Positions 775 to 48,618 of a stretch of 64,000 bases of DNA are shown here, piece by piece (the first letter of the stretch is position 1; the number at the start of each line of letters is the position of its first letter). The stretch is from assembly GCA_023264635.1 (NCBI GenBank), contig JAHFLT010000001.1:35307-99306 (forward strand), in the 5' to 3' direction. The DNA comes from Candidatus Woesearchaeota archaeon. Lineage in GTDB: Archaea > Nanobdellota > Nanobdellia > Woesearchaeales > JAGVYF01. Below the pieces are notes generated by a model. The model ran no database searches. It saw nothing but the letters and a program-made list of their open reading frames with translations, and had not been told where the DNA came from. A program made the translations under genes and the position numbers.

Positions 775-1030
775 TATTTCACCCACTTTTTTTTCTTTTT
801 CTCCTTTTTGTTTCTACGTTCTCTTTTCTTTCTCCAGCCTCTCTCCTTTCTCCTGTCTCTATAATTCTATCTTATCATCTCTCTCTGTGCCATCTCTAAT
901 ACGCATTCTGTTTATCACCATATGCTTCTGCATTTAAATGCTTTTTGGAGAGAATGCGTACAATCTCTCTTCACCAGTTTTAAGCAGTCTTTACGCAATC
1001 TCCAAGCAGTCTCTAGTAAAGATGCCATAT

Positions 1031-1292
1031 GCTCTGTAGAAAGTCTCGCTCTCGCTAGCCATTGCACCTCAGCTCGCATGTGCTGTTAATCTGCAGAGTG
1101 ACACAAAGGAGAACCGCTGTTCTCCTTGTGCAAGAAGCCTATGGCTTCTTTGCATTTCCCGGATGGAGCACAAAGAAATCTCGCAGATTTCTTGTGCAAG
1201 TTGCTTCGCAACTTTGCATCCCCTTTGTCACTTTTCCTGACTCTTGAAGGTGCTCGCCCTTAAGAGTGGCAATGGTACACTTTTTACAGAAC
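1031..1292. mobile_element. MITE-like non-autonomous element, type I, copy A
   Basis: About 262 bp, near-identical to copy at 5769..6030. Terminal inverted repeats GGCTCTGTAGAAAGT / ACTTTTTACAGAACC (right end has 2 mismatches). Flanking direct repeat GATGCCATA(T/G) at 1021-1030 and 1294-1302. Internal nested hairpins. Confidence 0.7.
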
Positions 1293-1338
1293 CGATGCCA
1301 TAGTAAGTTTTTTAATAGAATCAGATTTCCCATTATCC

Positions 1339-5721: not shown

Positions 5722-5768
5722 GCAGAGCAACAGAAAAAGTGCATTATATATAGGTTTCTGTGGTGGAG

Positions 5769-6030
5769 GCTCTGTAGAAAGTCTCGCTCTCGCTCGCCAT
5801 TGTACCTCAGTTCGCATGTGCTGTTAGTCTGCAGAGTGACACAAAGGAGAACCGCTGTTCTCCTTGTGCAAGAAGCCTATGGCTTCTTTGCATTTCCCGG
5901 ATGGAGCACAAAGAAATCTCGCAGATTTCTTGTGCAAGTTGCTTCGCAACTTTGCATCCCCTTTGTCACTTTTCCTGACTCTTGAAGGTGCTCGCCCTTA
6001 AGAGTGGCAATGGTACACTTTCTACAGAGC
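5769..6030. mobile_element. MITE-like non-autonomous element, type I, copy B
   Basis: 262 bp. Perfect 15-bp terminal inverted repeats GGCTCTGTAGAAAGT...ACTTTCTACAGAGCC. Perfect 10-bp target duplication CTGTGGTGGA at 5758-5767 and 6031-6040. Confidence 0.8.
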
Positions 6031-6143
6031 CTGTGGTGGATGCTATGCGTGATGAGATGTTGGATGTGGTGGTGCTCAGTGATGATGCTGTGATAACGAC
6101 TCTGAGCAAAAGTTTATATCATACACCATGAATCACCAAGTGC

Positions 6144-7683: not shown

Positions 7684-9990
7684 ATGAACCGCGAAAAGTG
7701 GGAAGTTTCCTTAGAAGACTTAGTCTGGATAGCAGATCCAACAGAGTTCACATTTGCAAATACAGTTGAGATACATCCACCTGTTAATCCTATTGACATT
7801 GTCAAAGGCCAACATGATGCCAAACAGACGCTTCTGTCAGCAATAAAACTTCGCCAAAATGCAATCCTTATAGGGCCTGCTGGGTGCGGCAAATCACTGC
7901 TGGCAAAAACAGTGGCTGAACAATTCTCACTGGAAAATGCGAACAAGATAAAGCTCTATGACCAATGCCTCATCTATAATTTGGAGAATGAATTTGAACC
8001 GGATGTGATTAGCCTTCCGACGCCACTCGGAAAGCAATTTGCCGAAGACTTCAGGACATTCATAAAATATATTCGTGCAGGTGCCCACTACAGGCCTACT
8101 GGCCATGGAAATCCTCAGGATACGAAAATAACGTTCCGCACACATTCATTTTTTTCCACAACTGAATATTCAGGAACGCTAAAGCAACTTTTGGAAGGTG
8201 TGGCCAAGCAGAATGGGTTGACTATAGTGCCTGATGCTGATGTACTTTTCAAACATAGTATCAGGATGCTTGATGCGCCAGTGCTTACTGATGGAAAAGA
8301 TTACTTTACGTTGCGAATCTTGTGCCCTCATTATGAATTTGACGAACCTCGCAATGGAAAATCATTTATCCTCGACAATTTAGTGCAGACCTATAAATAT
8401 TATCCTAAAGTGCTTCGCTATTTTGGTGATATGGCTCGTGAAGTTCGTGAAACTGAAGAAATGAAAGGATTATTTGACATGGAGCAGCCATTTATAAAAA
8501 AAATGCGCGAAGAGAAATACATGATTAACGTTATTGTCAATAACGCTGAGACCGTTGGAGTCCCTGTGGAATATATTGAGAATCCGAGTATACAGAACAT
8601 TATCGGAGAAGCTGGCCATGATGCATATAATCTCCGCCCAATGCATATGCGTATCAAACCAGGCAAGCTCCATCGCGGTAATGGGGGTATCGTCATTATA
8701 GATGAGCTTATCACTGTCTTGCAGGATCAATACATGCGTAACTTTTTGCTTACTGTACTTAACGACAAGCAAGGCCGGATCGGGGGTGGCGCTGGCTTGA
8801 GTGGTGGAGGGACAAGCGCTGGCGTTGAGACAAAGCCTGTTGCAGCGGATTGCATCGTCATTGGATGCGCAAATGACGATGTATTCAAGTACATGACAGA
8901 CAAGATTGCCAGACGTTTCCAGCACAAGGTGAAATTCCATACAACTATGGACAACACATTGGAAAATAGGATGGGATACGCAGAATTTATTGCTTATGAA
9001 ATCAATAAATACAATAATGACTCCTCAAATCAAGTAAAGCTTTCTCATTGTACTCCTGAAGCAGTTGCTGCTGTTGTCGAGTGGGGCGTTCGCTTTGCCC
9101 AGAATGCTGCGCATGGCAAGAAAAAGCTCACTAATGTGCTTGATCCAGTGGCATTACTTGTGAAATCAGCAGCGATGAAGGCATCACAAGAGAATGCACC
9201 ACTTGTTGAGCGTATCCATGTCCAAGCTGCTCGCGAGGAGTTGCGGCGGTTGTCGACACAGATGCAGACAGACTATCTTACTTATATTAATGAGGGTCTC
9301 ATATCCATAGAGGTGGATGGTTTCCGAGAGCGTATAGTTAACGGGCTTGTTGTTATTAAAGATAACTATGGACTTGTTGCATATGGATTTCCTACACGAT
9401 TAATAGCTACAGCATCGCAAGGCAAAGGCGGATTTCTCAGCAGTGAAAAGGAGGCCGGGCTTTCAGGAAAAATTATGCTGAAAACGCATGAAATAATTAA
9501 GACTTACTTTAATGCAACCTATGGGAAAGCATTGGCAAAAGTAAATTTATCAGTCAGTTTCGCACAGAGCTATTCATCGATAGATGGCGATAGCGCATCG
9601 ATAGCGACTGTCATCGCACTTAAAAGTGCTCTTAGTGGCATGCCTGTAGATCAAGGACTGGCTGTTACAGGTTCGATGAATGAGCTGGGAGAAATCCAGC
9701 CAATAGGCGGCGTCAATGAGAAGATAGAGGGATTCTATGCGGTTTGTAAGCAAAAAGGATTCACCAGAAAGCAAGGTGTCATCATTCCCCCGAGCAATGT
9801 TCCGGATCTAATGTTAGCAAAAGATGTTATAGATGATGTCTGCGCTGGAAACTTCCATGTGTATTCTGTCAAACATCTGGATGAAGCAGTGGAGCTTATG
9901 TTTGCCAAGCCAGCACAGGACGTTGACAGATGCATACGGAAAAAGCTTGAGGAATACTGGAGGGAAGACAGTGTCACGGGTAAACGCTGA
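7684..9990 (+). CDS. Soluble LonB-like AAA+ serine protease with about 250-aa insertion between Walker A and Walker B
   Basis: Walker A GPAGCGKS, Walker B GGIVIIDE. C-terminal Lon protease domain DGDSASIA (Ser) and GGVNEKIEG (Lys). No hydrophobic transmembrane segment in the insert, unlike canonical archaeal LonB. RBS-like AGGAAG upstream. Confidence 0.8.
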   Translation: MNREKWEVSLEDLVWIADPTEFTFANTVEIHPPVNPIDIVKGQHDAKQTLLSAIKLRQNAILIGPAGCGKSLLAKTVAEQFSLENANKIKLYDQCLIYNLENEFEPDVISLPTPLGKQFAEDFRTFIKYIRAGAHYRPTGHGNPQDTKITFRTHSFFSTTEYSGTLKQLLEGVAKQNGLTIVPDADVLFKHSIRMLDAPVLTDGKDYFTLRILCPHYEFDEPRNGKSFILDNLVQTYKYYPKVLRYFGDMAREVRETEEMKGLFDMEQPFIKKMREEKYMINVIVNNAETVGVPVEYIENPSIQNIIGEAGHDAYNLRPMHMRIKPGKLHRGNGGIVIIDELITVLQDQYMRNFLLTVLNDKQGRIGGGAGLSGGGTSAGVETKPVAADCIVIGCANDDVFKYMTDKIARRFQHKVKFHTTMDNTLENRMGYAEFIAYEINKYNNDSSNQVKLSHCTPEAVAAVVEWGVRFAQNAAHGKKKLTNVLDPVALLVKSAAMKASQENAPLVERIHVQAAREELRRLSTQMQTDYLTYINEGLISIEVDGFRERIVNGLVVIKDNYGLVAYGFPTRLIATASQGKGGFLSSEKEAGLSGKIMLKTHEIIKTYFNATYGKALAKVNLSVSFAQSYSSIDGDSASIATVIALKSALSGMPVDQGLAVTGSMNELGEIQPIGGVNEKIEGFYAVCKQKGFTRKQGVIIPPSNVPDLMLAKDVIDDVCAGNFHVYSVKHLDEAVELMFAKPAQDVDRCIRKKLEEYWREDSVTGKR

Positions 9991-10003
9991 TGAAATTGAA
10001 GGA

Positions 10004-10543
10004 ATGGAGAAGCAATCAAAATTCCATACATTCCGTTTTCTTCTGGTTGCGTTCACAGCATATTTTGCAATAAATTGGTATGTTAAGAAGAGCGATGAGC
10101 CGTATAAAGAACCAGCATCGTTGTATGGCAGTCTTGAAGAAGCTATTGCTGGCCAGCTGCCCAGATATGGTTATGCTGCGGTGAAGATAGATGATACTAT
10201 TGGACCATATGACCCAGTCATAAAGGGAAAACAGATGCTCGGCTATGTCCATGATGATGCAGATACATTGCAGCTAGATGGGAAAGATATAGGCTACATC
10301 GTTCACGGTGTTGTCTATAATGCTGCTGGTAGAAAAGTGGCAAGATTGACAACAGGAGCTGTAGGTTATGAGATTTATTCCTATGATAACAAGAAACTGG
10401 GAACACTGACAGAAAAAAAACTTTTGAATTCTTCTGGTGCTGTGCTCGGAACGCTAGGTCCAAAGGCTGCTGTCGTTATGGACAATGGAGATAACTTAAC
10501 AGGGATTATCACAGGATATGATTATTCACGGAAGAATCTGTGA
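10004..10543 (+). CDS. Membrane-anchored protein with Tyr/Gly-rich repeats, co-operonic with Lon-like protease
   Basis: ATG 13 bp after the Lon stop, in frame with listed ORF 9833..10543. N-terminal FRFLLVAFTAYFAINWY transmembrane helix. Repeated G-Y/V motifs. Stop lies inside the target duplication of MITE copy C. Confidence 0.45.
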   Translation: MEKQSKFHTFRFLLVAFTAYFAINWYVKKSDEPYKEPASLYGSLEEAIAGQLPRYGYAAVKIDDTIGPYDPVIKGKQMLGYVHDDADTLQLDGKDIGYIVHGVVYNAAGRKVARLTTGAVGYEIYSYDNKKLGTLTEKKLLNSSGAVLGTLGPKAAVVMDNGDNLTGIITGYDYSRKNL

Positions 10544-10549
10544 GAGAAG

Positions 10550-10690
10550 GCTCCATCCAAAAATTCTCGCTCTCACTCGGCTCAGCGGCTTCTCGCCTTT
10601 GCATTTCCCAGATATCATCCCTTTGTCAGCACAAAATGAGCTACTGCTAAAGCTCGACCTTAGGCTGCTGAGCGCTTTTTTGGATGGAGC
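10550..10690. mobile_element. MITE-like non-autonomous element, type II, copy C (shares termini with the IS at 26799..27981)
   Basis: 141 bp. Termini GCTCCATCCAAAAAT...TTTTTTGGATGGAGC match the IS terminal inverted repeats. Perfect 10-bp target duplication GTGAGAGAAG at 10540-10549 and 10692-10701. Confidence 0.8.
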
Positions 10691-10849
10691 CGTGAGAGAA
10701 GAAACGAATAATGGGGAGAAACAAACTTTATTCTAATAGACAGCTTACACTAAAAAAAATCCCTCCCCGTTTGGGGAGAGTTTTTTCCTCAGAACTCAAA
10801 TCGGGGGTAAGAGGAGGAACATGAAAAAAAAAAGGAAAAAAAATTCCCA

Positions 10850-13717: not shown

Positions 13718-14482
13718 TTATATAAAGTACCTAACTGCATTTGTGAAAATCTGTAAACCGGCACCTTCTTTTGGCAGGTTTTTAGTCCACAGAGGATGTT
13801 GGTATGTGTCAATGAATCGCTCAGGATGTGGCATTAATCCGAAGATTCTGCCACTCTCATCACAAATTCCGGCAATATCATCTAATGAGCCATTAGGATT
13901 ATAAGGAAATTCTCCTTTGGCAGAAAATCCATTCTTCGCATAGCGCAGGGCAATCATATCACGCTTAGTCAATTCGTTCACTGTATTATCTGACGCATAG
14001 AATCTTCCTTCTCCGTGTGCAATCGGTAACTCTATCTTGTCTATTCCCTGCGTAAAAATGCACTTTGATGAGCCAATGAGCTCAACCCATCTACATTCAT
14101 ACCGTGCACTTGTGTTGTGCGTCAATGCCACAGTCCGTGCGCCGTATTCCCCAGTAATGGCAGGAAGCAGCCCGAGGTTAGTCATCACCTGAAATCCGTT
14201 ACATATACCTATGATTAATTTGCCTACAGCAATGAACTGCAACAGTTCCTCCCACATAGTGTTGCGCAATCTGTTCGCCAAAGCCTTGCCTGATCCAGTA
14301 TCGTCTCCATAAGAAAATCCTCCGGGAAATGCTAAGAGGTGATATGTCTCTAATTTTTTTTTATTCTCGATTAATTCGGTGATATGCATCTGTTCTGTCA
14401 GAGCTCCAGCTCGTTCGAAGGCATATTTGGTCTCTTCATTGCAATTGATTCCATACCCAGTTAGCACAAGTGCTTTTACCAT
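13718..14482 (-). CDS. purQ: Phosphoribosylformylglycinamidine synthase, glutamine amidotransferase subunit
   Basis: 254 aa. Class I glutamine amidotransferase (ICNGFQ Cys, HPER His region). Overlaps purL stop. Confidence 0.85.
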   Translation of the reverse strand: MVKALVLTGYGINCNEETKYAFERAGALTEQMHITELIENKKKLETYHLLAFPGGFSYGDDTGSGKALANRLRNTMWEELLQFIAVGKLIIGICNGFQVMTNLGLLPAITGEYGARTVALTHNTSARYECRWVELIGSSKCIFTQGIDKIELPIAHGEGRFYASDNTVNELTKRDMIALRYAKNGFSAKGEFPYNPNGSLDDIAGICDESGRIFGLMPHPERFIDTYQHPLWTKNLPKEGAGLQIFTNAVRYFI

Positions 14483-17343
14483 TTATTAAACCTAACCTTA
14501 TACACCCTTTCAAGTGCAGTTAGAGTGGTATTAATGACAAGCTTGCTTCCATCGCGTACAAAAAACATATGTGGCGTAACGTACCCTATACGGAAATACA
14601 TACACTCGAGCATTTTCTCAAAGGCGCCTGCATTCTTCTGTGAAACACTTACAATGAATCGCCCGGGTGATTCTGAGAATAGTGTTTTATACTGTGGCAA
14701 ATGTAGTTGGTTTATGTCACCATGAACGCCTTTTCTCCCAGCGATTGCACATTTTGCCAGACTTACAGCCAGCCCACCTAATCCAACAGCGTGTGCACTT
14801 TCAACCAGACCTTGCTCGATTGCTTTCTCGAGTTTGCCATAAAGTTGAATTGTTTCATCTAACCTGACCATTGGAACATTCTTGCCGACAACATCATTCA
14901 TTGCATAATACTCTGAGCCGCCCAATTCATCTCTTGTTTTTCCGATAATATAAAGGACATCTCCTGATTTTTTGAAATCCATACTGATACATTTTCTGAT
15001 ATCAGAAATAATACCGATAGAGGAAATAAGTATCGTCGGTGGGATAGAAAGGGATATTTTATTTTCATATTCATCAAATCCTCTGAAATCATTATGCATG
15101 CTGTCCTTTCCGGATATGAAGGGGGTACCATACATTACAGCAGTATTATAGCATGCTTCAGCTGCACGTTTCAGCTGGCCCAATCTTTTTGGATCGTTAG
15201 GACTGCACCAGCAGAAATTGTCCAGCAGTGCTGTCTGTTCCAGCTTTCCACCAACAGCAATTATATTTCTAACTGCATAGTCAATGGCACAGGCAGCCAT
15301 CCAGTATGCGTCTATATCCCCATACGATGGAAAAATGCCCTGTGATAATGCAATTCCTCGATAGGAATCTAATAACGGCCTCGCCACAGTAGCATCCGCA
15401 TTAACCCTTCCTTTTCCAATGAGTGGTTTTAGCACAGAGCCACCCTGAACTTCATGATCATACTGCCGAGAGATAAATTCACGGCTGCATATGTTTGCAC
15501 GGTTGAGCATTTCTGTTAACACGTGTGTCAAATCTTTCGGCACTTTCAGTATGGGCTCTCTGTGCCTCGCAAGTTCATCGGTAGAAGCTACTTTCTTTTT
15601 GGGTAATCCATTGTGCAGAAAATCTAGTTCGAGGTCCATCACTGTTTCATTGCCATACTTTACAGTACATTTTCCACTGTGTGTAAATTTCCCGATAGTC
15701 GTTGCCTCTACTCCGTGCTTTTTCATTACACTAAGAAATGCCTCTACTCTCTCAGGAGGCACAGCAATTGTCATACGTTCCTGCGATTCACTCACCCAGA
15801 GCTGCCATGGCGCCATGCCAGCATATTTTGTCGGTATATTTTCCAATTGGACAAAGCAGCCATTGCTCTCTTTTGCCATCTCTGCAATAGAGCAGGACAA
15901 TCCACCAGCACCGTTATCTGTAATGCTATTATAAAGTCCTCTTGCTTCAAGCAAGGCGTCTGCCATTTTTTTCTGGGTGATTGGGTCTCCTATTTGCACT
16001 GCAGTAGCTGGACTTCCTGCATTGAGCGCTTCTGAAGAGAATGTTGCACCGTGTACCCCATCCACTCCAACTTTACCCCCTATCATCAAGATGTAGTCTT
16101 CGGGCAGTGCCTTTTTTTCGTGACTTGGTTTTCCTGCAACAGTTCGCGGGATGAACCCCACAGTACCTACAAAAACCAATGGTTTTGCACGATACTGTTC
16201 ATTAAAAAGCATAAATCCCTGTGTAGTGGGAATGCCTGAGCAGTTTCCACCAACACGCACTCCTTCAATAACTCCTTCCATGATTCTTTTTGGTGATAGC
16301 ATCAGAACATTTTTTGTGCGATAAAGTTTTTTATTATCTTCGGGTATTCCGAAACAGAAGCCGTATGTGTTGATAATGGGTTTTGCGCCAGTTCCAAAGC
16401 CAAGACAATCACGATTAACACCAAGGATACCTGTGATAGCACCTCCGAAGGGATCCAATGCAGACGGACTGTTATGGGTCTCTACTTTATGTGTAACAAG
16501 ATACTTGTCATCAAAAACTAGTGCGCCGGAATTGTCAACGAAAACAGATGGACAAGTCACATGTCCCCACTTCATGTTCAGTATCCTTTCTGTTGCTCCT
16601 TGGATATACGTCTTGAACAATCCTTCTCTATTATTCATTTGTGCTGCAAAAATTCGGTGCTTACAGTGCTCAGACCATGTTTGTGCAAGGGATTCAAGTT
16701 CAACATCAGTTGGCTTCCTTCCTTTGTTTCGGAAATAGTTTTGAATGGCTTTCATCGCATCTCCATCAAGAGCAAGAGGACCATTGATTCCCTTATTGCC
16801 TATTGCAACGAGTGCAGCATCGCTCACGTCCAAGTCAATGAGTGCTGCTGCAGTGGATTGTAATGGCATTTGTAAAGATACTTTTGGGATAGTAATGCAC
16901 AACGGCTCGTTTCTCTTCCTTATCGTAATTTTGTTAATAAGCGGATTGGCGAATTGGGTAGCTATTTTTTGGATCTCACTATATGTTCCACCAACAAGAT
17001 ACATTGTTTGTGAAGAATAGACATTCACTGGCATGCACAGGCAATCCTCAATTGTTTGGTGTGCAGTGGCGCCAATATTATCAGTAACTCCGGGCAAGAA
17101 TCCAACATCTACAACCCATTCAAAGTTGTGTATGCAGTAGTCATCAATGCTATACTTTTCTATAACCGGATTAATGAACAGCAAAGCACATTGCTCGAGT
17201 TGTTCCTTGAAGAGATTTTTATCTATTGTATATGTATCAGTCAATGCGATGATTCTGGCTTCTATGCCCAAACCAGTTATCTTTCTTTCTCTCATTGCTG
17301 CACGTGTATCTGTAATTATGGGAAAGACTTCAATACGGTGCAT
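14476..17343 (-). CDS. purL: Phosphoribosylformylglycinamidine synthase PurL with two N-terminal PurS-like domains (PurS-PurS-PurL fusion)
   Basis: Listed ORF extends to 17490, but its first 31 codons are MITE copy D, so the start is taken at the next ATG, 17343 (MHRIEVF). N-terminal about 150 aa carry two PurS-like units ending NPVIEKYSI and NPLINKITI. PurL core follows. Confidence 0.8.
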   Translation of the reverse strand: MHRIEVFPIITDTRAAMRERKITGLGIEARIIALTDTYTIDKNLFKEQLEQCALLFINPVIEKYSIDDYCIHNFEWVVDVGFLPGVTDNIGATAHQTIEDCLCMPVNVYSSQTMYLVGGTYSEIQKIATQFANPLINKITIRKRNEPLCITIPKVSLQMPLQSTAAALIDLDVSDAALVAIGNKGINGPLALDGDAMKAIQNYFRNKGRKPTDVELESLAQTWSEHCKHRIFAAQMNNREGLFKTYIQGATERILNMKWGHVTCPSVFVDNSGALVFDDKYLVTHKVETHNSPSALDPFGGAITGILGVNRDCLGFGTGAKPIINTYGFCFGIPEDNKKLYRTKNVLMLSPKRIMEGVIEGVRVGGNCSGIPTTQGFMLFNEQYRAKPLVFVGTVGFIPRTVAGKPSHEKKALPEDYILMIGGKVGVDGVHGATFSSEALNAGSPATAVQIGDPITQKKMADALLEARGLYNSITDNGAGGLSCSIAEMAKESNGCFVQLENIPTKYAGMAPWQLWVSESQERMTIAVPPERVEAFLSVMKKHGVEATTIGKFTHSGKCTVKYGNETVMDLELDFLHNGLPKKKVASTDELARHREPILKVPKDLTHVLTEMLNRANICSREFISRQYDHEVQGGSVLKPLIGKGRVNADATVARPLLDSYRGIALSQGIFPSYGDIDAYWMAACAIDYAVRNIIAVGGKLEQTALLDNFCWCSPNDPKRLGQLKRAAEACYNTAVMYGTPFISGKDSMHNDFRGFDEYENKISLSIPPTILISSIGIISDIRKCISMDFKKSGDVLYIIGKTRDELGGSEYYAMNDVVGKNVPMVRLDETIQLYGKLEKAIEQGLVESAHAVGLGGLAVSLAKCAIAGRKGVHGDINQLHLPQYKTLFSESPGRFIVSVSQKNAGAFEKMLECMYFRIGYVTPHMFFVRDGSKLVINTTLTALERVYKVRFNKW

Positions 17344-17398
17344 ACCCACCTGGGGAAGAACAACTACATAAAAATTGTGGATTTCAGAGGTAAAACAG

Positions 17399-17538
17399 GT
17401 TCCATCCAAAAAAGCGCTCAGCAGCCTAAGGTCGAGCTTTAGCAGTAGCTCATTTTGTGCTGACAAAGGGATGATATCTGGGAAATGCAAAGGCGAGAAG
17501 CCGCTGAGCCGAGTGAGAGCGAGACTTTCTACAGAGCC
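17399..17538. mobile_element. MITE-like hybrid element, copy D
   Basis: One end GGTTCCATCCAAAAAA (type II / IS-like terminus, 1 mismatch). Other end ACTTTCTACAGAGCC (type I terminus). Imperfect flanking repeat TAAAA(A)CA(A)G. Lies 55 bp upstream of purL start. Confidence 0.65.
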
Positions 17539-24104: not shown

Positions 24105-26561
24105 ATGATTCCTGTGAAGGTAATGGATTATAAGGTTCCGGTAGAAAAGTTACGTATAGAGGTCGACAAACAAGAATTCGGACTTAAAGGCCAGACGACC
24201 AGCGTACTACCAGTACCGAAAGGACTGGAAGTTGTGGTAGGTAATGAAGAAGCAATCAGCACAGTCCTCAGAGGATTAGAGGACAAAAGTCCGACAACAA
24301 ACATCATTATCACCGGAGATCCTGGCGTGGGAAAAAGCCTTTTGACGAATATACTTCTGGAAGATTATTGTAAAAAGCAGCCGAACGATCATCTGACAGA
24401 TAAAGTCGTGTTCTATAATTTCAAGCACGAGAAACAACCGATTATTGCGGAATTGCCGAAGGGGACTGCTTATCAGTTTGCAAAATCAGTAGATGATACG
24501 TTGTCGCAACTGGTAATTGAAGCAATGACTATTGGGCAGAATTACATGATAAAAAAGAACGTAAGCCAAGTCAAGTATAGGATTATGGAGAAGAAAGTTA
24601 TCGATGACCTTGAGAAGAAGTACAAAATTCCAAAGAAACCAATACTGGATAAAAATAATCAGCAGAGAGTAGACAAAAACGGTCAGCCACTCTCAGAGTA
24701 TGATCCAAAAACCCAACAGGATTGTGATAACCTTGTGCAAATGCTGCATGATTTGTCGATTGTACAATCCACCAACGATACTGCTTGCAAGAAAGAGTCA
24801 CGAACATTAACATCCCAAAAAAAGAAAGAGTTTGGCAGCTGTATGGGAAAAGCATTAAAAGAACTCCATACAGCATATGGACAGAACCTTCTCATTAAAG
24901 AGTACCTGGATGATTTCGTAATCAACGCAAAAGAGGATTTTGACCTATTTTTGGGGGAGGGACTAAGTAAAGATGCCCCACAAAATGATTACGGAATAGA
25001 AAAATACCGTGTCAATGTTGTCGTGGACCATACGCATACAATAGGCATTCCTTACGCAAAGATAGAGCGTCCTGATGAGCGAACATTACTCGGAGAAATA
25101 AAGGGAGACAACCTTAACGAGGAAAGCAAACCACCACAGTTCTGTGTGGATATAGGAAAAATGATAGAATGCGATGGAGGCATTGTTTTTCTTGATGAAA
25201 AATTCACAGGCATATTTCGGCATGGGCTGGGGCTTGAGCAGAGACTCCTGACTATTTTGGAAGAACGAAAGGCACGCGTGAGTGGAAACCAGAATTACTT
25301 ACTTCCAACACAGCAGATAGAGACTAGTGAAGTCAGCGCACAGACGAAGATTGTGGCATGCATGAACTTACCAGATTACTATATTTGCCAAGATTATTTT
25401 CCCCAGTTAATGGAGCGTTTTGCATACAAAGCGCATTTCCAGAGCAGGATGGAGAACAACGTAAAGCACAGAAAACAGGTTGTATCCTTTGTTGCCACCG
25501 AAATAAGGGCACACAACGAAAATGAAAAAATAAAGGTTCCACATTTTTCTGAAGATGGCTTAGCTGCACTGCTTGAGCATATGTCTCGTCAGGAGAATCA
25601 GCATTATTTGACAACACGACTGCGCACAATAAGACAGCTCCTTTTCTCTGCAGCAGAGCTTGCACGGCAAGAGAATAAGCCTGCTATTGAACGTCAGCAT
25701 GTGCTTGCTGCACGGGAGCTGCAAAACAAAGGATGCACATTGTATAAAATAGAGCAAGATATACTAGCAGGATTCGGCGTTGATGGGAGAGTACTACTGC
25801 TTACAACTGGTGAGAAAACCGGTCAAATAAACGGACTACTCTATTACAGCATCAACGCAGAAAACTATGCATTTGGCAGCTCGCAAAGGTACCGTTTTGT
25901 AATCAAACCAGGCTATTATGGCAGGGGATTGAAATTCACCGACATAGAGAAAGCATCTGACTTAACCGGACCAACTCATAACAAAGGAGTAGAACTGTTA
26001 AAATCATTCTACAACAACCTAACTAATGAGCTGCGTGAACGGAAGATGATTTCAGGTTTAGCACCTGGATTAGAGGTTGACATGTCAGTACCAGAAAGTT
26101 GGAGCGGGAGGGATGGACCTTCTGCGACAGCTGCACAAGCATATGCATTCTTATCTGAACTAACTGGAATCCCCATAAAGCAGGGAATTGCTGTTACTGG
26201 TGCAATGGGTCCTGATGGTGAAGTGACTCTTGTTGGAGGCTTAAATGAAAAGATAGAAGGCTGGTACAAGATTCTGGCAAAGAGAGGCCATCTTGGGAAA
26301 GAGGCTGGTGTAATGATTCCGGCTGCCAACATACTGGAGTGTAATCTTTCTGATGACTGTATCAAGGCAGTGAAGAAGGGGGAATTCTCAGTCTATTATC
26401 ACAAGGATATTAGAACTGGTGTTGAAGTAATACTGGGTAAGAGTTGGGATGACGTGCTACAGGGTATCAAGAATACGTTCGACAAGTGGGAGAAAATGCT
26501 GGAAGAAGATGAAGTGAAACGTGCTAAAAGGAAAAAGGAGATAAAAGCAGCATTACCGTAA
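24105..26561 (+). CDS. Second soluble LonB-like AAA+ serine protease paralog with about 300-aa insertion between Walker A and B
   Basis: Walker A GDPGVGKS, Walker B GGIVFLDE. Lon protease domain GRDGPSATAA and GGLNEKIEG. Insert is hydrophilic and unrelated in sequence to the first paralog insert. Confidence 0.75.
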   Translation: MIPVKVMDYKVPVEKLRIEVDKQEFGLKGQTTSVLPVPKGLEVVVGNEEAISTVLRGLEDKSPTTNIIITGDPGVGKSLLTNILLEDYCKKQPNDHLTDKVVFYNFKHEKQPIIAELPKGTAYQFAKSVDDTLSQLVIEAMTIGQNYMIKKNVSQVKYRIMEKKVIDDLEKKYKIPKKPILDKNNQQRVDKNGQPLSEYDPKTQQDCDNLVQMLHDLSIVQSTNDTACKKESRTLTSQKKKEFGSCMGKALKELHTAYGQNLLIKEYLDDFVINAKEDFDLFLGEGLSKDAPQNDYGIEKYRVNVVVDHTHTIGIPYAKIERPDERTLLGEIKGDNLNEESKPPQFCVDIGKMIECDGGIVFLDEKFTGIFRHGLGLEQRLLTILEERKARVSGNQNYLLPTQQIETSEVSAQTKIVACMNLPDYYICQDYFPQLMERFAYKAHFQSRMENNVKHRKQVVSFVATEIRAHNENEKIKVPHFSEDGLAALLEHMSRQENQHYLTTRLRTIRQLLFSAAELARQENKPAIERQHVLAARELQNKGCTLYKIEQDILAGFGVDGRVLLLTTGEKTGQINGLLYYSINAENYAFGSSQRYRFVIKPGYYGRGLKFTDIEKASDLTGPTHNKGVELLKSFYNNLTNELRERKMISGLAPGLEVDMSVPESWSGRDGPSATAAQAYAFLSELTGIPIKQGIAVTGAMGPDGEVTLVGGLNEKIEGWYKILAKRGHLGKEAGVMIPAANILECNLSDDCIKAVKKGEFSVYYHKDIRTGVEVILGKSWDDVLQGIKNTFDKWEKMLEEDEVKRAKRKKEIKAALP

Positions 26562-26753
26562 TGATTCTTTGCGTAGAAGGAAATGATACCCTGCGAAATA
26601 ATCATCATCTTCCCATTCCTGTGCATGTTCAGCATATACAGAATTTTCCATTTCCAGACGGGCAAAACAAATTGAGCATAAGAACATCAAGCTTTCCTCA
26701 AATGCAACTTCTTGGATCGCCTGCCTGCGGCGGCAAACCTGGCAGTTACGCAT
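26553..26753 (-). CDS. Possible small zinc-ribbon protein (CxxC...CxxC)
   Basis: Listed ORF 26553..26810 takes its first codons from the IS terminus. Internal Met at 26753 gives a 66-aa CQVC...CSIC protein. Weak support. Confidence 0.2.
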   Translation of the reverse strand: MRNCQVCRRRQAIQEVAFEESLMFLCSICFARLEMENSVYAEHAQEWEDDDYFAGYHFLLRKESLR

Positions 26754-26798
26754 TTTTCTTACTAGTGGAATGTTGCTTTTAAGGTTTTCTACAGCTTT

Positions 26799-27981
26799 GG
26801 CTCCATCCAAAAATAGATTAACTTCCGAGTTCTAAGTAAAATAAAATGGGCAAGCCGAATATTCGGCTCAACCCACAAGTAGAATCGGTTCGTAACCGAA
26901 TTCTGCTCAATAAGGCCACTGAGATTCTTCTCTCTTGCGCCTTGTTGCTTCCCGAACCTTCTCACGTGGGTAAGGGAAGAATACCATACGATTACCGCGT
27001 CGTATTGGTATTATGTATACTCCGTATCCTGCTCCGCAAGAGTTATGCGGACTATGAAACGGAGATGCGGTCAGATAAGAGGTTGCATGAGATGTTAAAA
27101 ATTGACAAGCTACCATGTAAAAGCACCGTCAATAATTATGCATCTCAATTTACGTTGACCTTCTTATCCGAGTTCAACAAGAAGCTTATAGACAACTGGA
27201 TTAAAAAACCTGTCGATTTGCTTCTTGATGCTTCAGGCATTAGGCTAGTGGGCAGAAGCATCTGGTTCTGCCTCAAAACCAGACAAAAGATTCAGAAGAA
27301 AGACTGCGATAAAATACACATAGCAGTAAGTTTATGCAGCTTACTTATAGTTAACTTCAGAATCTCTAATTCTAATAGGAATGACTCACCATTCCTCAGA
27401 AAACTTCTTAGGCCATTTAGTTCTTTGGGTTTATTTCTCGTCGATAAAGGTTACAGCAACGAAACAAATGCCAATTTTGTGGCAAATAAAAAAGGTGCAT
27501 TCTTTTCACCATTTAAGGTGAATGCAAGACCTTCGGCATTTAGTCTTTGGAAAAAACTATACACACTATGGGAAACCTTCCATAGTCTTTGTGAAGGGAT
27601 TTATCACCAAAGATCCAAAGTGGAAGCTGTTTTTTCCGCATTGAAAAATAGGTATGAAGACCAGCTTTACTCGACGAGATGGTACATGATGAGACGGGAA
27701 ATGGCAATGCGGTTTATTGCCTATAACGTGAGAATTATTGTGGGAATACAAATAGCAAGAGAGAAGAACATACCTTTGTGGGTTAGAGCCTAAAAAAACG
27801 GTTTCTGCCAAGAAAACGTCATAGCGATAGCTCTATTCATTTTGCCGTTACTGGCGCCGTACAGGCAGGAATTGTCCCTTCGGAAATGCTTGCGAGACTT
27901 TTCTACCAGAAAATCCATCGATTACCTATTGCAACGGCAAAACCTTTAACGAAGGTTAGAACTCATTTTCTGGATGGAGCC
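26799..27981 (+). mobile_element. Insertion sequence (DDE transposase, IS4/IS5-superfamily-like) with terminal inverted repeats and target-site duplication
   Basis: Left terminus GGCTCCATCCAAAAAT (26799-26814). Right terminus reverse-complements to GGCTCCATCCAGAAAAT (27965-27981). Flanking direct repeat CTACAGCTTT at 26789-26798 and 27981/27982-27990 (one-base ambiguity). Single transposase ORF inside. Confidence 0.8.
26846..27793 (+). CDS. DDE-type transposase
   Basis: 315 aa. Candidate catalytic residues in LLLDASGIRL, FLVDKGYSNE and VEAVFSALKNRYED. Typical DDE_Tnp_1 arrangement. Confidence 0.8.
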   Translation: MGKPNIRLNPQVESVRNRILLNKATEILLSCALLLPEPSHVGKGRIPYDYRVVLVLCILRILLRKSYADYETEMRSDKRLHEMLKIDKLPCKSTVNNYASQFTLTFLSEFNKKLIDNWIKKPVDLLLDASGIRLVGRSIWFCLKTRQKIQKKDCDKIHIAVSLCSLLIVNFRISNSNRNDSPFLRKLLRPFSSLGLFLVDKGYSNETNANFVANKKGAFFSPFKVNARPSAFSLWKKLYTLWETFHSLCEGIYHQRSKVEAVFSALKNRYEDQLYSTRWYMMRREMAMRFIAYNVRIIVGIQIAREKNIPLWVRA

Positions 27982-28132
27982 TACAGCTTTTTTGTGGGTT
28001 TGCCTTCAGTTCGTTCCGCTTGCAACGGTGAACCCCGGAAAAGACTGAACCGACGTTCTCTGTGTTGAACACAGATGCTTTTTCTTATACCCTCATGAGG
28101 CGTAGACTCCTTCGTTTTTTCCCATACCGAAG

Positions 28133-28396
28133 TTACTTCAGCAAACTCTCAACGCTCTTTCCATCAATCTCATTGAAGTATTTTCGTCCCAAAATCTCAT
28201 AATATACCTCAGGAATTCCGTTGTTGTTGAGATCTTTTCGTTGCAGGACATACCCATATTTTGCTCTCTCTTTCTCTTCCTCATCTTTGGAAAAGAGACG
28301 CTGGTTTTCTAAGTGGACAAGAGATATAAGAATTCCACCCGCTAATGTAAAACCCGCTAAAACATACATTCCTTCAGACACGTTCATAATTATCAC
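28133..28396 (-). CDS. Small membrane protein
   Basis: 87 aa. VLAGFTLAGGILISLV transmembrane segment then charged tail. Confidence 0.3.
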   Translation of the reverse strand: MIIMNVSEGMYVLAGFTLAGGILISLVHLENQRLFSKDEEEKERAKYGYVLQRKDLNNNGIPEVYYEILGRKYFNEIDGKSVESLLK

Positions 28397-48358: not shown

Positions 48359-48402
48359 GTGTCATTAAGCAAATGGGTTTTTATAAACCTTTCCTAGAGG
48401 AA

Positions 48403-48618
48403 GCTCCATCAAAAATTCTCGCTTCCTCCTGGCTCAGCAGCTTCTCGCCTTTGTATTTCAGGCGATAGCTGACACAAAGGAGAACTATTGTTCTCCTTGT
48501 GCGAGAAGCCTATGGCTTTTTTGCATTTCCCGGACGTCGTCCCCCCATTGTCAGCACAAAATGGGCTACTGCTAAGGCTCGACCTTAGGTTGCTGAGCGC
48601 TTTTTTTTGATAGAGTCC
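48403..48618. mobile_element. MITE-like composite element, copy E (degenerate termini)
   Basis: Ends resemble type II / IS termini (GCTCCATCAAAAAT ... TTTTTTTTGATAGAGTCC). Centre carries the type I hairpin core (GTGACACAAAGGAGAAC...GTTCTCCTTGTG). Sits 44 bp upstream of the ATPase start. Confidence 0.6.

Follow-up and report, generated by a model that had tools for sequence, protein, structure and literature searches.

What is the unit of 1183 bp that interrupts the spacer between two neighbouring genes in this part of a Candidatus Woesearchaeota archaeon genome, where does it belong among the known mobile elements, and is it still mobile? The window, by which we mean the whole analysed stretch of 64,000 nucleotides from contig JAHFLT010000001.1, carries at positions 26799-27981 what is very probably an autonomous insertion sequence (IS) of the broadly defined IS5 family. 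Among characterised elements, the IS903 group would be its nearest relative, and its lineage is abundant in DPANN archaea (Woesearchaeota and Nanoarchaeota). This reading is carried by the anatomy of the element, by the homology of its transposase with conserved catalytic motifs, and by many independent insertions of related elements that are bordered by 9-bp duplications.

A first-pass annotation of the window had described a complete insertion sequence of 1183 bp with terminal inverted repeats. The ends were found by reading the sequence and with a repeat finder, and they agree with that description (coordinates of all features are collected in Table 1). The terminal inverted repeats of 16/17 nt have the sequence GGCTCCATCCA-AAAAT. 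When the arms were extracted they aligned with each other, being complementary at 14 of 15 positions without gaps in the repeat finder and at 16 of 17 positions if one 1-nt indel was allowed. The symmetry extends through the final base (GGCTCC...GGAGCC). With up to two mismatches, the terminal 15-mer of the IS occurred five times in the 64-kb window compared to an expectation of 0.34, and none of 100 shuffles reached five occurrences. Full-length relatives of the element were 1168-1212 bp long and had the same ends, giving the terminus consensus GGCT(C/T)CATCCAA(A/T)AA for the family. The inner, A/T-rich portion of the left repeat, AAAAATAGATTAA, may serve the transposase gene as a TATA-like element.

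The direct repeat that had been reported on both flanks of the IS is perfect, at nine of nine bases. The chance that nine identical bases abut both termini is about 4e-6 for fixed positions. Its length had been given as 10 bp, and the repeat finder did return a 10-nt string, CTACAGCTTT, at 26789-26798 and 27981-27990. However, the C at 27981 is already the last base of the right inverted repeat, and the target duplication is thus 9 bp and not 10. In total, 9-bp duplications were found at nine sites: at the window IS, at copy 1 of a miniature inverted-repeat transposable element (MITE) of the window that is described below, at the five full-length relatives L002 (CGCTGGAAG), L043 (TGGCTTCCC), L044 (TTGTAATAC), L045 (GTAAATTAA) and L024 (TATCTCCTT) on well-assembled contigs, and at two sites, GATTTAAGC and CATAATTTG, that were rebuilt across short contigs, the left flank being taken from one contig and the matching right flank from another. 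The tenth base was mismatched at MITE copy 1, at L045 and at both rebuilt sites, which fixes the length of the duplication at nine. At five of the nine sites the nucleotide immediately 5' of the left copy was the same as the last base of the element, and in L044 both were T; this agreement at the tenth base may come from a slight preference in the target or from a stagger that is occasionally 10 bp. Mismatched flanks were frequent among the short metagenome contigs that carry relatives, as is expected of an assembler that walks through a multi-copy repeat.

The unit encodes a single DDE transposase of 315 aa, as the first-pass annotation had said, and its gene is the one long open reading frame (ORF) of the element. 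The protein matched Pfam PF01609 (DDE_Tnp_1) over residues 122-294 with an E-value of 5.7e-17 and 62.6 bits, compared to a cut-off of 23. The best NCBIfam model was NF033579 ("IS5 family transposase"), which the protein matched from position 44 to 287 of 289 with 88.3 bits and an E-value of 6e-25. Weaker matches to IS4_1 (45 bits), ISNCY_1 (41 bits) and IS1182 (35 bits) were all below their cut-offs. An assignment to the IS4 family does not fit the protein, which scored 45.1 bits against a cut-off of 115 for NF033592, is 315 aa long and has 60 residues from the second D to the E. The catalytic residues are D128, D200 and E260, and the signature reads Y253-x2-R256-x3-E260-x6-K267. In an alignment of 24 homologues with 72-90% identity, D128, D200, E260, Y253 and R256 were invariant and K267 was nearly so. 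A tblastn search against plasmids gave only genes with 24-30% identity, all annotated as IS5 family and some of them haloarchaeal. A search of PDB sequences with the family profile gave a chance match only.

The sequence of the IS903 transposase that we used for comparison was verified by tblastn, in which it was 98.4-98.7% identical to genes annotated as "IS5 family transposase" in more than 5000 plasmid records. The IS903 transposase matched NF033579 over its full length at 352.8 bits, which makes the IS903 type of the IS5 family the nearest curated family of the window transposase. In a profile comparison with hhalign, D128, D200 and E260 fell on D121, D193 and E259 of IS903, and the YREK signatures were aligned. 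The spacing between the two aspartates is 72 in both proteins, and the spacing from D to E is 60 in the window element compared to 66 in IS903. Both transposases are about 310 aa long (315 in the window and 307 in IS903), both are encoded by one ORF that fills most of the element, and both have NF033579 as their best NCBIfam model; the window protein is about 24% identical to that of IS903. Elements of the IS903 group have GGC termini and a length of about 1-1.2 kb. The window element has GGC ends, a single ORF, a length of 1183 bp, a 9-bp duplication, a DDE_Tnp_1 domain and the D-D-E/YREK residues of this group.

The comparison also showed differences. IS903B is 1057 bp long compared to 1183 bp for the window element. 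The termini begin with GGCT in both, a plasmid copy of IS903B beginning with GGCTTTGTTGAATAAATC, but beyond GGCT the repeats are little alike. After the stop codon IS903 has 58 nt, whereas the window element has a 188-nt tail with a covarying structure, and the window element also differs by a conserved palindrome just 3' of the start codon. The host range of IS903 is enterobacterial and that of the lineage of the window element is archaeal (DPANN). The duplications are of the same length, since 9-bp repeats have been described for IS903B (PMC10513040). Among the better-known transposons of the IS4 family, Tn5/IS50 and Tn10/IS10 have the Pfam domain family, the YREK signature and the 9-bp duplication in common with the window element, but their transposases are much longer, at about 400-480 aa, and contain a large insertion domain.

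A protein search gave 523 relatives of the transposase. The 120 best were 72-100% identical and nearly all lay on contigs of 1.1-1.6 kb, which is typical of multi-copy repeats in assemblies. Relatives with a named origin were few and came from Candidatus Woesearchaeota and Nanoarchaeota; the species-representative genomes gave the same origins and, in addition, one 4-kb contig binned as Thaumarchaeota. These origins, together with an archaeal LonB-type protease encoded beside the IS, also point to a DPANN host for the window. The exact protein of one relative, P0098, was found on at least 24 contigs at different sites. Some copies stood out in other ways. L005:1737-2917 is a decayed copy with an in-frame TAA in the transposase gene and unmatched flanks, and in L007 a tRNA gene (1499-1583) lies 50 nt past the right end of the related IS. 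In L029, L033, L034 and L044 the related copies adjoin other transposase genes (rve, DDE_3 and IS240-type); the DPANN contigs concerned hold IS clusters or nested insertions.

The tail of 188 nt between the stop codon of the transposase gene and the right repeat contains a structured element of about 135 nt. Its plan consists of a small hairpin, AGC-NNNN-GCU, and of a long closing stem that encloses a G+C-rich and an A/U-rich hairpin, the latter with stems such as CUUUUCU/AGAAAAG, CUUUUGC/GCAAAAG and AAAUUGC/GCAAUUU. The tails of relatives differ in sequence, yet each folds independently to the same plan. In a MAFFT alignment of nine copies with 35 pairs, 84% of the cells could pair, compared to 30-44% when the partners were slid by 1-3 columns; 19 pairs had changed on both sides compared to 5-9 in the slid controls, and no shuffle reached the observed score. 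The covariance model R1, built on this alignment, gave the window copy 89.6 bits and found two copies outside its seed, namely L046 (68.9 bits) and the truncated L009. An alignment of 12 distinct copies fitted to the model, which favours the structure by construction, had 88% of its cells paired compared to 32-42% in the slid controls, with compensatory changes in 23 of the 35 pairs compared to 6-10. At E<=0.01 the structure went undetected in L003, L005, L010-L012, L018/L020 and L044. Rfam 15 at E<=1 gave no match in the window copy and only an unrelated tRNA in eight relatives, and the window tail taken alone had no notable folding energy, with z = -1.9 for the plus and -0.4 for the minus strand. 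In L043 the tail (2461-2633) is an almost pure A/C sequence of low complexity, unstructured at -12 kcal/mol, and this copy has a perfect duplication. The structure is thus not required for insertion.

G-U and A-C combinations were equally frequent when all copies were counted (12 vs 12) and occurred as 12 vs 3 in the well-folded copies, which gives a weak preference for the transposase-sense strand as the strand that would fold. The most economical reading is that the structure would be a 3'-untranslated region (3'-UTR) element of the transposase mRNA that may act in stability, 3'-end formation or regulation. The start of the same gene carries a perfect 16-nt palindrome at codons 3-8. Its 7-nt halves, AGCCGAA/TTCGGCT, were kept in almost all of about 25 distinct copies, where the two central bases alone vary, and it was conserved at the same position in relatives even at synonymous sites of the Pro and Arg codons. 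This conservation near the translation start suggests a regulatory hairpin or a protein-binding site, and it recalls the damping of transposase expression in other IS elements. A bolder proposal is that the 3' structure is a functional RNA new for insertion sequences with a DDE transposase, which together with the palindrome would act as a cis-acting 3'-UTR element or a small RNA that controls the stability or translation of the transposase mRNA, or transposition, in a DPANN-specific IS5-like clade; we put this forward tentatively and consider it doubtful. The omega/reRNA of IS200/IS605 TnpB elements and the bridge/seek RNA of IS110/IS1111 elements are likewise conserved, covarying and non-coding structures next to one terminus. 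In contrast, the proteins served by those RNAs are RNA-guided TnpB nucleases or DEDD recombinases, whereas the window element encodes a classical DDE transposase, and no guide-like variable loops were identified in its 3' structure.

Two further sequence motifs were observed in the family. A conserved GGGGGTG motif lies a few tens of nt past the stop codon of the transposase gene in most relatives (for example L004:1000-1040, L017, L023 and L033), and the window copy, L002 and L007 have TTC(T/C)GCCAA(G/A)AAA in its place. The palindrome is followed by GGCTCAACCCACAA, which is like the terminal repeat at 11 of 15 positions.

Several observations weigh against the reading of the unit as a functional member of the IS903 group. 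Those that bear on mobility would fit a copy of the same origin that was inserted some time ago and is now an immobile relic, an alternative that we regard as unlikely. The exact transposase was found only once in the collection, at one locus, and G271E and R282M are private to it at positions where all 23 other homologues agree. The 3' structure of the window copy keeps 25 of 35 pairs compared to 31-34 in L002, L007, L033 and L045, and four of the breaks are G-to-A changes in stems; in addition, one indel or mismatch separates the two inverted repeats. An exact search of the JGI metagenome contigs for the rebuilt empty site AAGGTTTTCTACAGCTTTTTTGTGGGTT, with the junction ...AAGGTTTTCTACAGCTTT/TTTGTGGGTT..., gave no match. 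When the flanking Lon and 84-aa proteins were looked up by exact match, only contigs that carry the insertion came back, the IS being present in all three assemblies with these proteins, and the L047 locus, where a homologue of the small flanking gene lies, was not syntenic and thus unusable as an empty site. Against a relic stand the perfect 9-bp duplication, the full-length ORF and the presence of all catalytic and invariant residues. The six private changes of the window transposase at near-invariant columns are typical for the family, in which other members have 0-9, and the protein therefore does not look decayed. L043, which has a perfect duplication and lacks the 3' structure, indicates that an eroded structure need not abolish mobility. 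The recent transposition that the first-pass annotation had deduced thus remains plausible from the perfect duplication and the intact ORF, but it is unproven since no empty site was found. A second identical copy was not found either, and the present-day activity of this copy is something that we infer.

The remaining points against the proposed reading concern the family. The NF033579 score of 88.3 bits is below the curated cut-off of 140, and the transposase is thus homologous to the curated equivalog but lies outside it. The hhalign comparison with IS903 was collinear over 234 columns, but with an E-value of 0.0056 and a probability of 6.5%, and because this probability is low the alignment serves only as supporting evidence. 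A structure prediction from the 24-sequence alignment reached a pLDDT of 46.9 and a pTM of 0.30 and did not confirm the RNase-H-like fold; the low confidence is explained by the shallow alignment. The score below the cut-off and the weak profile comparison mean that the placement rests on remote similarity and architecture. The element could then belong to a family other than IS5, with IS4, ISNCY and IS1182 as candidates, or found a new one, and the likeness to IS903 would reflect the generic DDE_Tnp_1 fold. In favour of this, the transposase is below the curated cut-off of every NCBIfam transposase model, the plasmid-borne IS5-family transposases are so distant, and the non-coding tail is more than three times that of IS903. 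However, the IS903-type model of the IS5 family was best by about 43 bits and covered 244 of its 289 positions, every plasmid match in the tblastn search lay under a gene annotated as IS5 family, and the D-D spacing, the YREK signature, the GGC termini and the duplication length are those of IS903, with a similar protein length. We therefore consider a placement outside IS5 improbable. In the preferred reading, the element is a new and distant IS903-like member of the IS5 family and is otherwise ordinary.

An assembly artefact, in which an IS of another community member was collapsed into the contig, is extremely improbable. In its favour, related copies abound in metagenomes of this kind and interrupt their assembly, short contigs carry most of the homologues and many mismatched flanks, and the Logan contigs from SRR14366766 with the left (L001) and right (L006) junctions both end inside the conserved interior of the IS. 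Against it, a chimera would not be expected to duplicate nine bases of the local flank perfectly on both sides, these same contigs reproduce both junctions with a different assembler, and the ENA contig shows the same arrangement, as does an NCBI record according to the source listing of the collection.

By analogy with the IS903 and Tn5/Tn10 enzymes, we infer a cut-and-paste chemistry for the element, the steps of which are established for DDE_Tnp_1 transposases. The single transposase, with D128, D200 and E260 in its active site, would bind both inverted repeats of about 16 bp and pair the ends. It would then hydrolyse the 3' ends at the borders of the element and free it, and the 3'-OH ends would be joined to target phosphates that are staggered by 9 bp. 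Gap repair by the host would leave the 9-bp duplication TACAGCTTT. The same type of transposase would presumably also mobilise, in trans, MITEs with the same termini.

Three such MITE copies of the IS type were found in the window, all of them intergenic. They are short and non-coding, occur in several copies, and have the termini of the IS and the same duplication length, as MITEs do. Because the ends and the duplication length are those of the IS, they were presumably moved in trans by this type of transposase. IS-derived MITEs are likewise short and non-coding with the termini of an IS, but the interior of the window MITEs is no simple deletion derivative of the window IS. We also considered that the MITEs consist of the left end, the structured 3' tail and the right end of the IS, and rejected this, as the covariance model gave 8.5 bits (E about 5) and matched the small hairpin only. 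Copy 1 has a perfect 9-bp duplication, GTGAGAGAA, at 10540-10548 and 10692-10700. This duplication contains the TGA stop of ORF 9833..10543, so that the insertion lies exactly at the end of a gene that remained intact. Copy 2 ends on one side in a terminus of the IS type with one mismatch and on the other in a terminus that agrees perfectly with a second MITE family, GGCTCTGTAGAAAGT, and its flanks match at six of nine positions. One terminus of each family and imperfectly matching flanks fit recombination between two elements, and copy 2 is probably a recombinant hybrid. The mechanically assigned start of the 1004-aa ORF 14476..17490 lies inside copy 2 and is therefore suspect. Copy 3 is an older and longer form with an extra segment of about 60 nt that contains a perfect hairpin, CACAAGGAGAAC-TATT-GTTCTCCTTGTG; the short copies are without this segment, and the second MITE family has it.

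Two copies of the second family were found in the window. Their sub-terminal sequence and the internal hairpin segment are in common with the IS-type MITEs, and no autonomous partner for them was found in the window or in 48 fetched loci. The 9-mer TTTCTACAG adjoins the insertion site of the IS, occurs at the odd end of MITE copy 2 and is found near-identically inside the IS. It was rejected as a target motif, since four of its six occurrences in the window are termini of the second MITE family and the other two are within chance.

The first-pass annotation had placed the IS between convergent genes, but the two flanking genes, 26553-26753 and 28133-28387, share the minus strand. The spacer of about 187 nt between this tandem pair holds the IS, which directly borders a promoter-like block of the downstream gene on its upstream side. 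On the other side of this downstream gene, which is small and zinc-ribbon-like, is a plus-strand Lon-like gene, whose 3' end overlaps that of the small gene by 9 nt (26553-26561). The ENA gene calls of the contig do not include the small ORF, which had been treated as annotated in its longer form, 26553..26810. A search of 5.8 billion clusters gave P0122 as the sole homologue of the small gene. This protein of 65 aa is 74% identical, starts with MRHCQVC and begins at the Met that is equivalent to position 26753; thus, the small ORF is a real gene and its true start is ATG 26753. For the minus-strand ORF 26553..26810 a program had listed a TTG start at 26810-26808. These bases belong to the left repeat of the IS, and the start is an artefact of the insertion, as had been claimed. 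When the IS and one 9-mer were removed, a stop codon lay just upstream and the first ATG was then 26753, so that the rebuilt empty site holds no longer ORF for the small gene.

The IS is inserted 45 nt upstream of ATG 26753. The 9-mer of the duplication abuts the block that resembles a B recognition element (BRE) and a TATA box, and its left copy shares one base with it. In L047, the block ACAGAAAACCTTAAAAGTAAC upstream of the homologous gene has the same distance to the ATG as GTAGAAAACCTTAAAAGCAAC in the window. The centre of the TATA-like part is about 27 nt upstream of the ATG, and the block may be the BRE and TATA of a leaderless or short-leader archaeal transcript. The insertion leaves the putative core promoter and the coding sequence of the small gene intact. 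An insertion of IS903B into the mgrB promoter has been described (PMC10513040), and the window element likewise adjoins a promoter-like block.

Table 1. Coordinates of the insertion sequence, its parts, the MITE copies and the neighbouring genes in the 64,000-nt window
Feature	Position	Strand	Description
Whole insertion sequence	26799..27981	+	1183 bp; inverted repeats and 9-bp duplication at borders
Left terminal inverted repeat	26799..26814	+	GGCTCCATCCAAAAAT
Right terminal inverted repeat	27965..27981	-	Plus-strand reading ATTTTCTGGATGGAGCC
Left copy of target duplication	26790..26798	.	9-mer TACAGCTTT
Right copy of target duplication	27982..27990	.	9-mer TACAGCTTT
Transposase gene	26846..27793	+	315 aa, DDE_Tnp_1; sole long ORF of the unit
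Perfect 16-nt palindrome	26853..26868	+	AGCCGAATATTCGGCT; codons 3-8 of transposase gene
Structured element in 3' non-coding tail	27817..27950	+	About 135 nt; predicted three-way junction
MITE copy 1 (type A)	10549..10691	+	143 bp, non-coding; termini identical to IS over 15-16 nt
MITE copy 2	17398..17538	-	98.5% identical to copy 1 over 131 nt, opposite orientation
MITE copy 3, older long form	48402..48617	+	86-87% identical to copy 1; degenerate termini and duplication
Second MITE family, copy	5768-6031		264 bp; termini GGCTCTGTAGAAAGT; perfect 9-bp duplication TGTGGTGGA
Second MITE family, copy	1030-1293		264 bp; termini GGCTCTGTAGAAAGT; perfect 9-bp duplication GATGCCATA
Lon-like gene	24105-26561	+	Archaeal LonB-type protease, left of IS
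Small flanking gene	26553..26753	-	66 aa, CxxC...CxxC, zinc-ribbon-like; start ATG 26753 (MRNCQVC...)
Promoter-like block	26776..26790	-	AGAAAACCTTAAAAG; BRE/TATA-like, upstream of small gene; intact after insertion
Right-flank gene	28133..28387	-	84 aa

For the annotation of this and similar contigs, the small gene starts at ATG 26753, ORF starts that lie within the ends of the IS or of MITEs are artefacts, and the target duplication is 9 bp. An IS at the upstream edge of a core promoter occupies a position that allows the regulation of a gene to be changed without destroying it. If the 3' structure were indeed a functional RNA, it would add a new regulatory layer to a classical DDE insertion sequence. 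The locus documents an abundant and apparently uncurated IS903-like lineage in DPANN archaea. The genomes of these archaea are very small, but one IS and no fewer than five MITEs lie in the 64 kb of this window.

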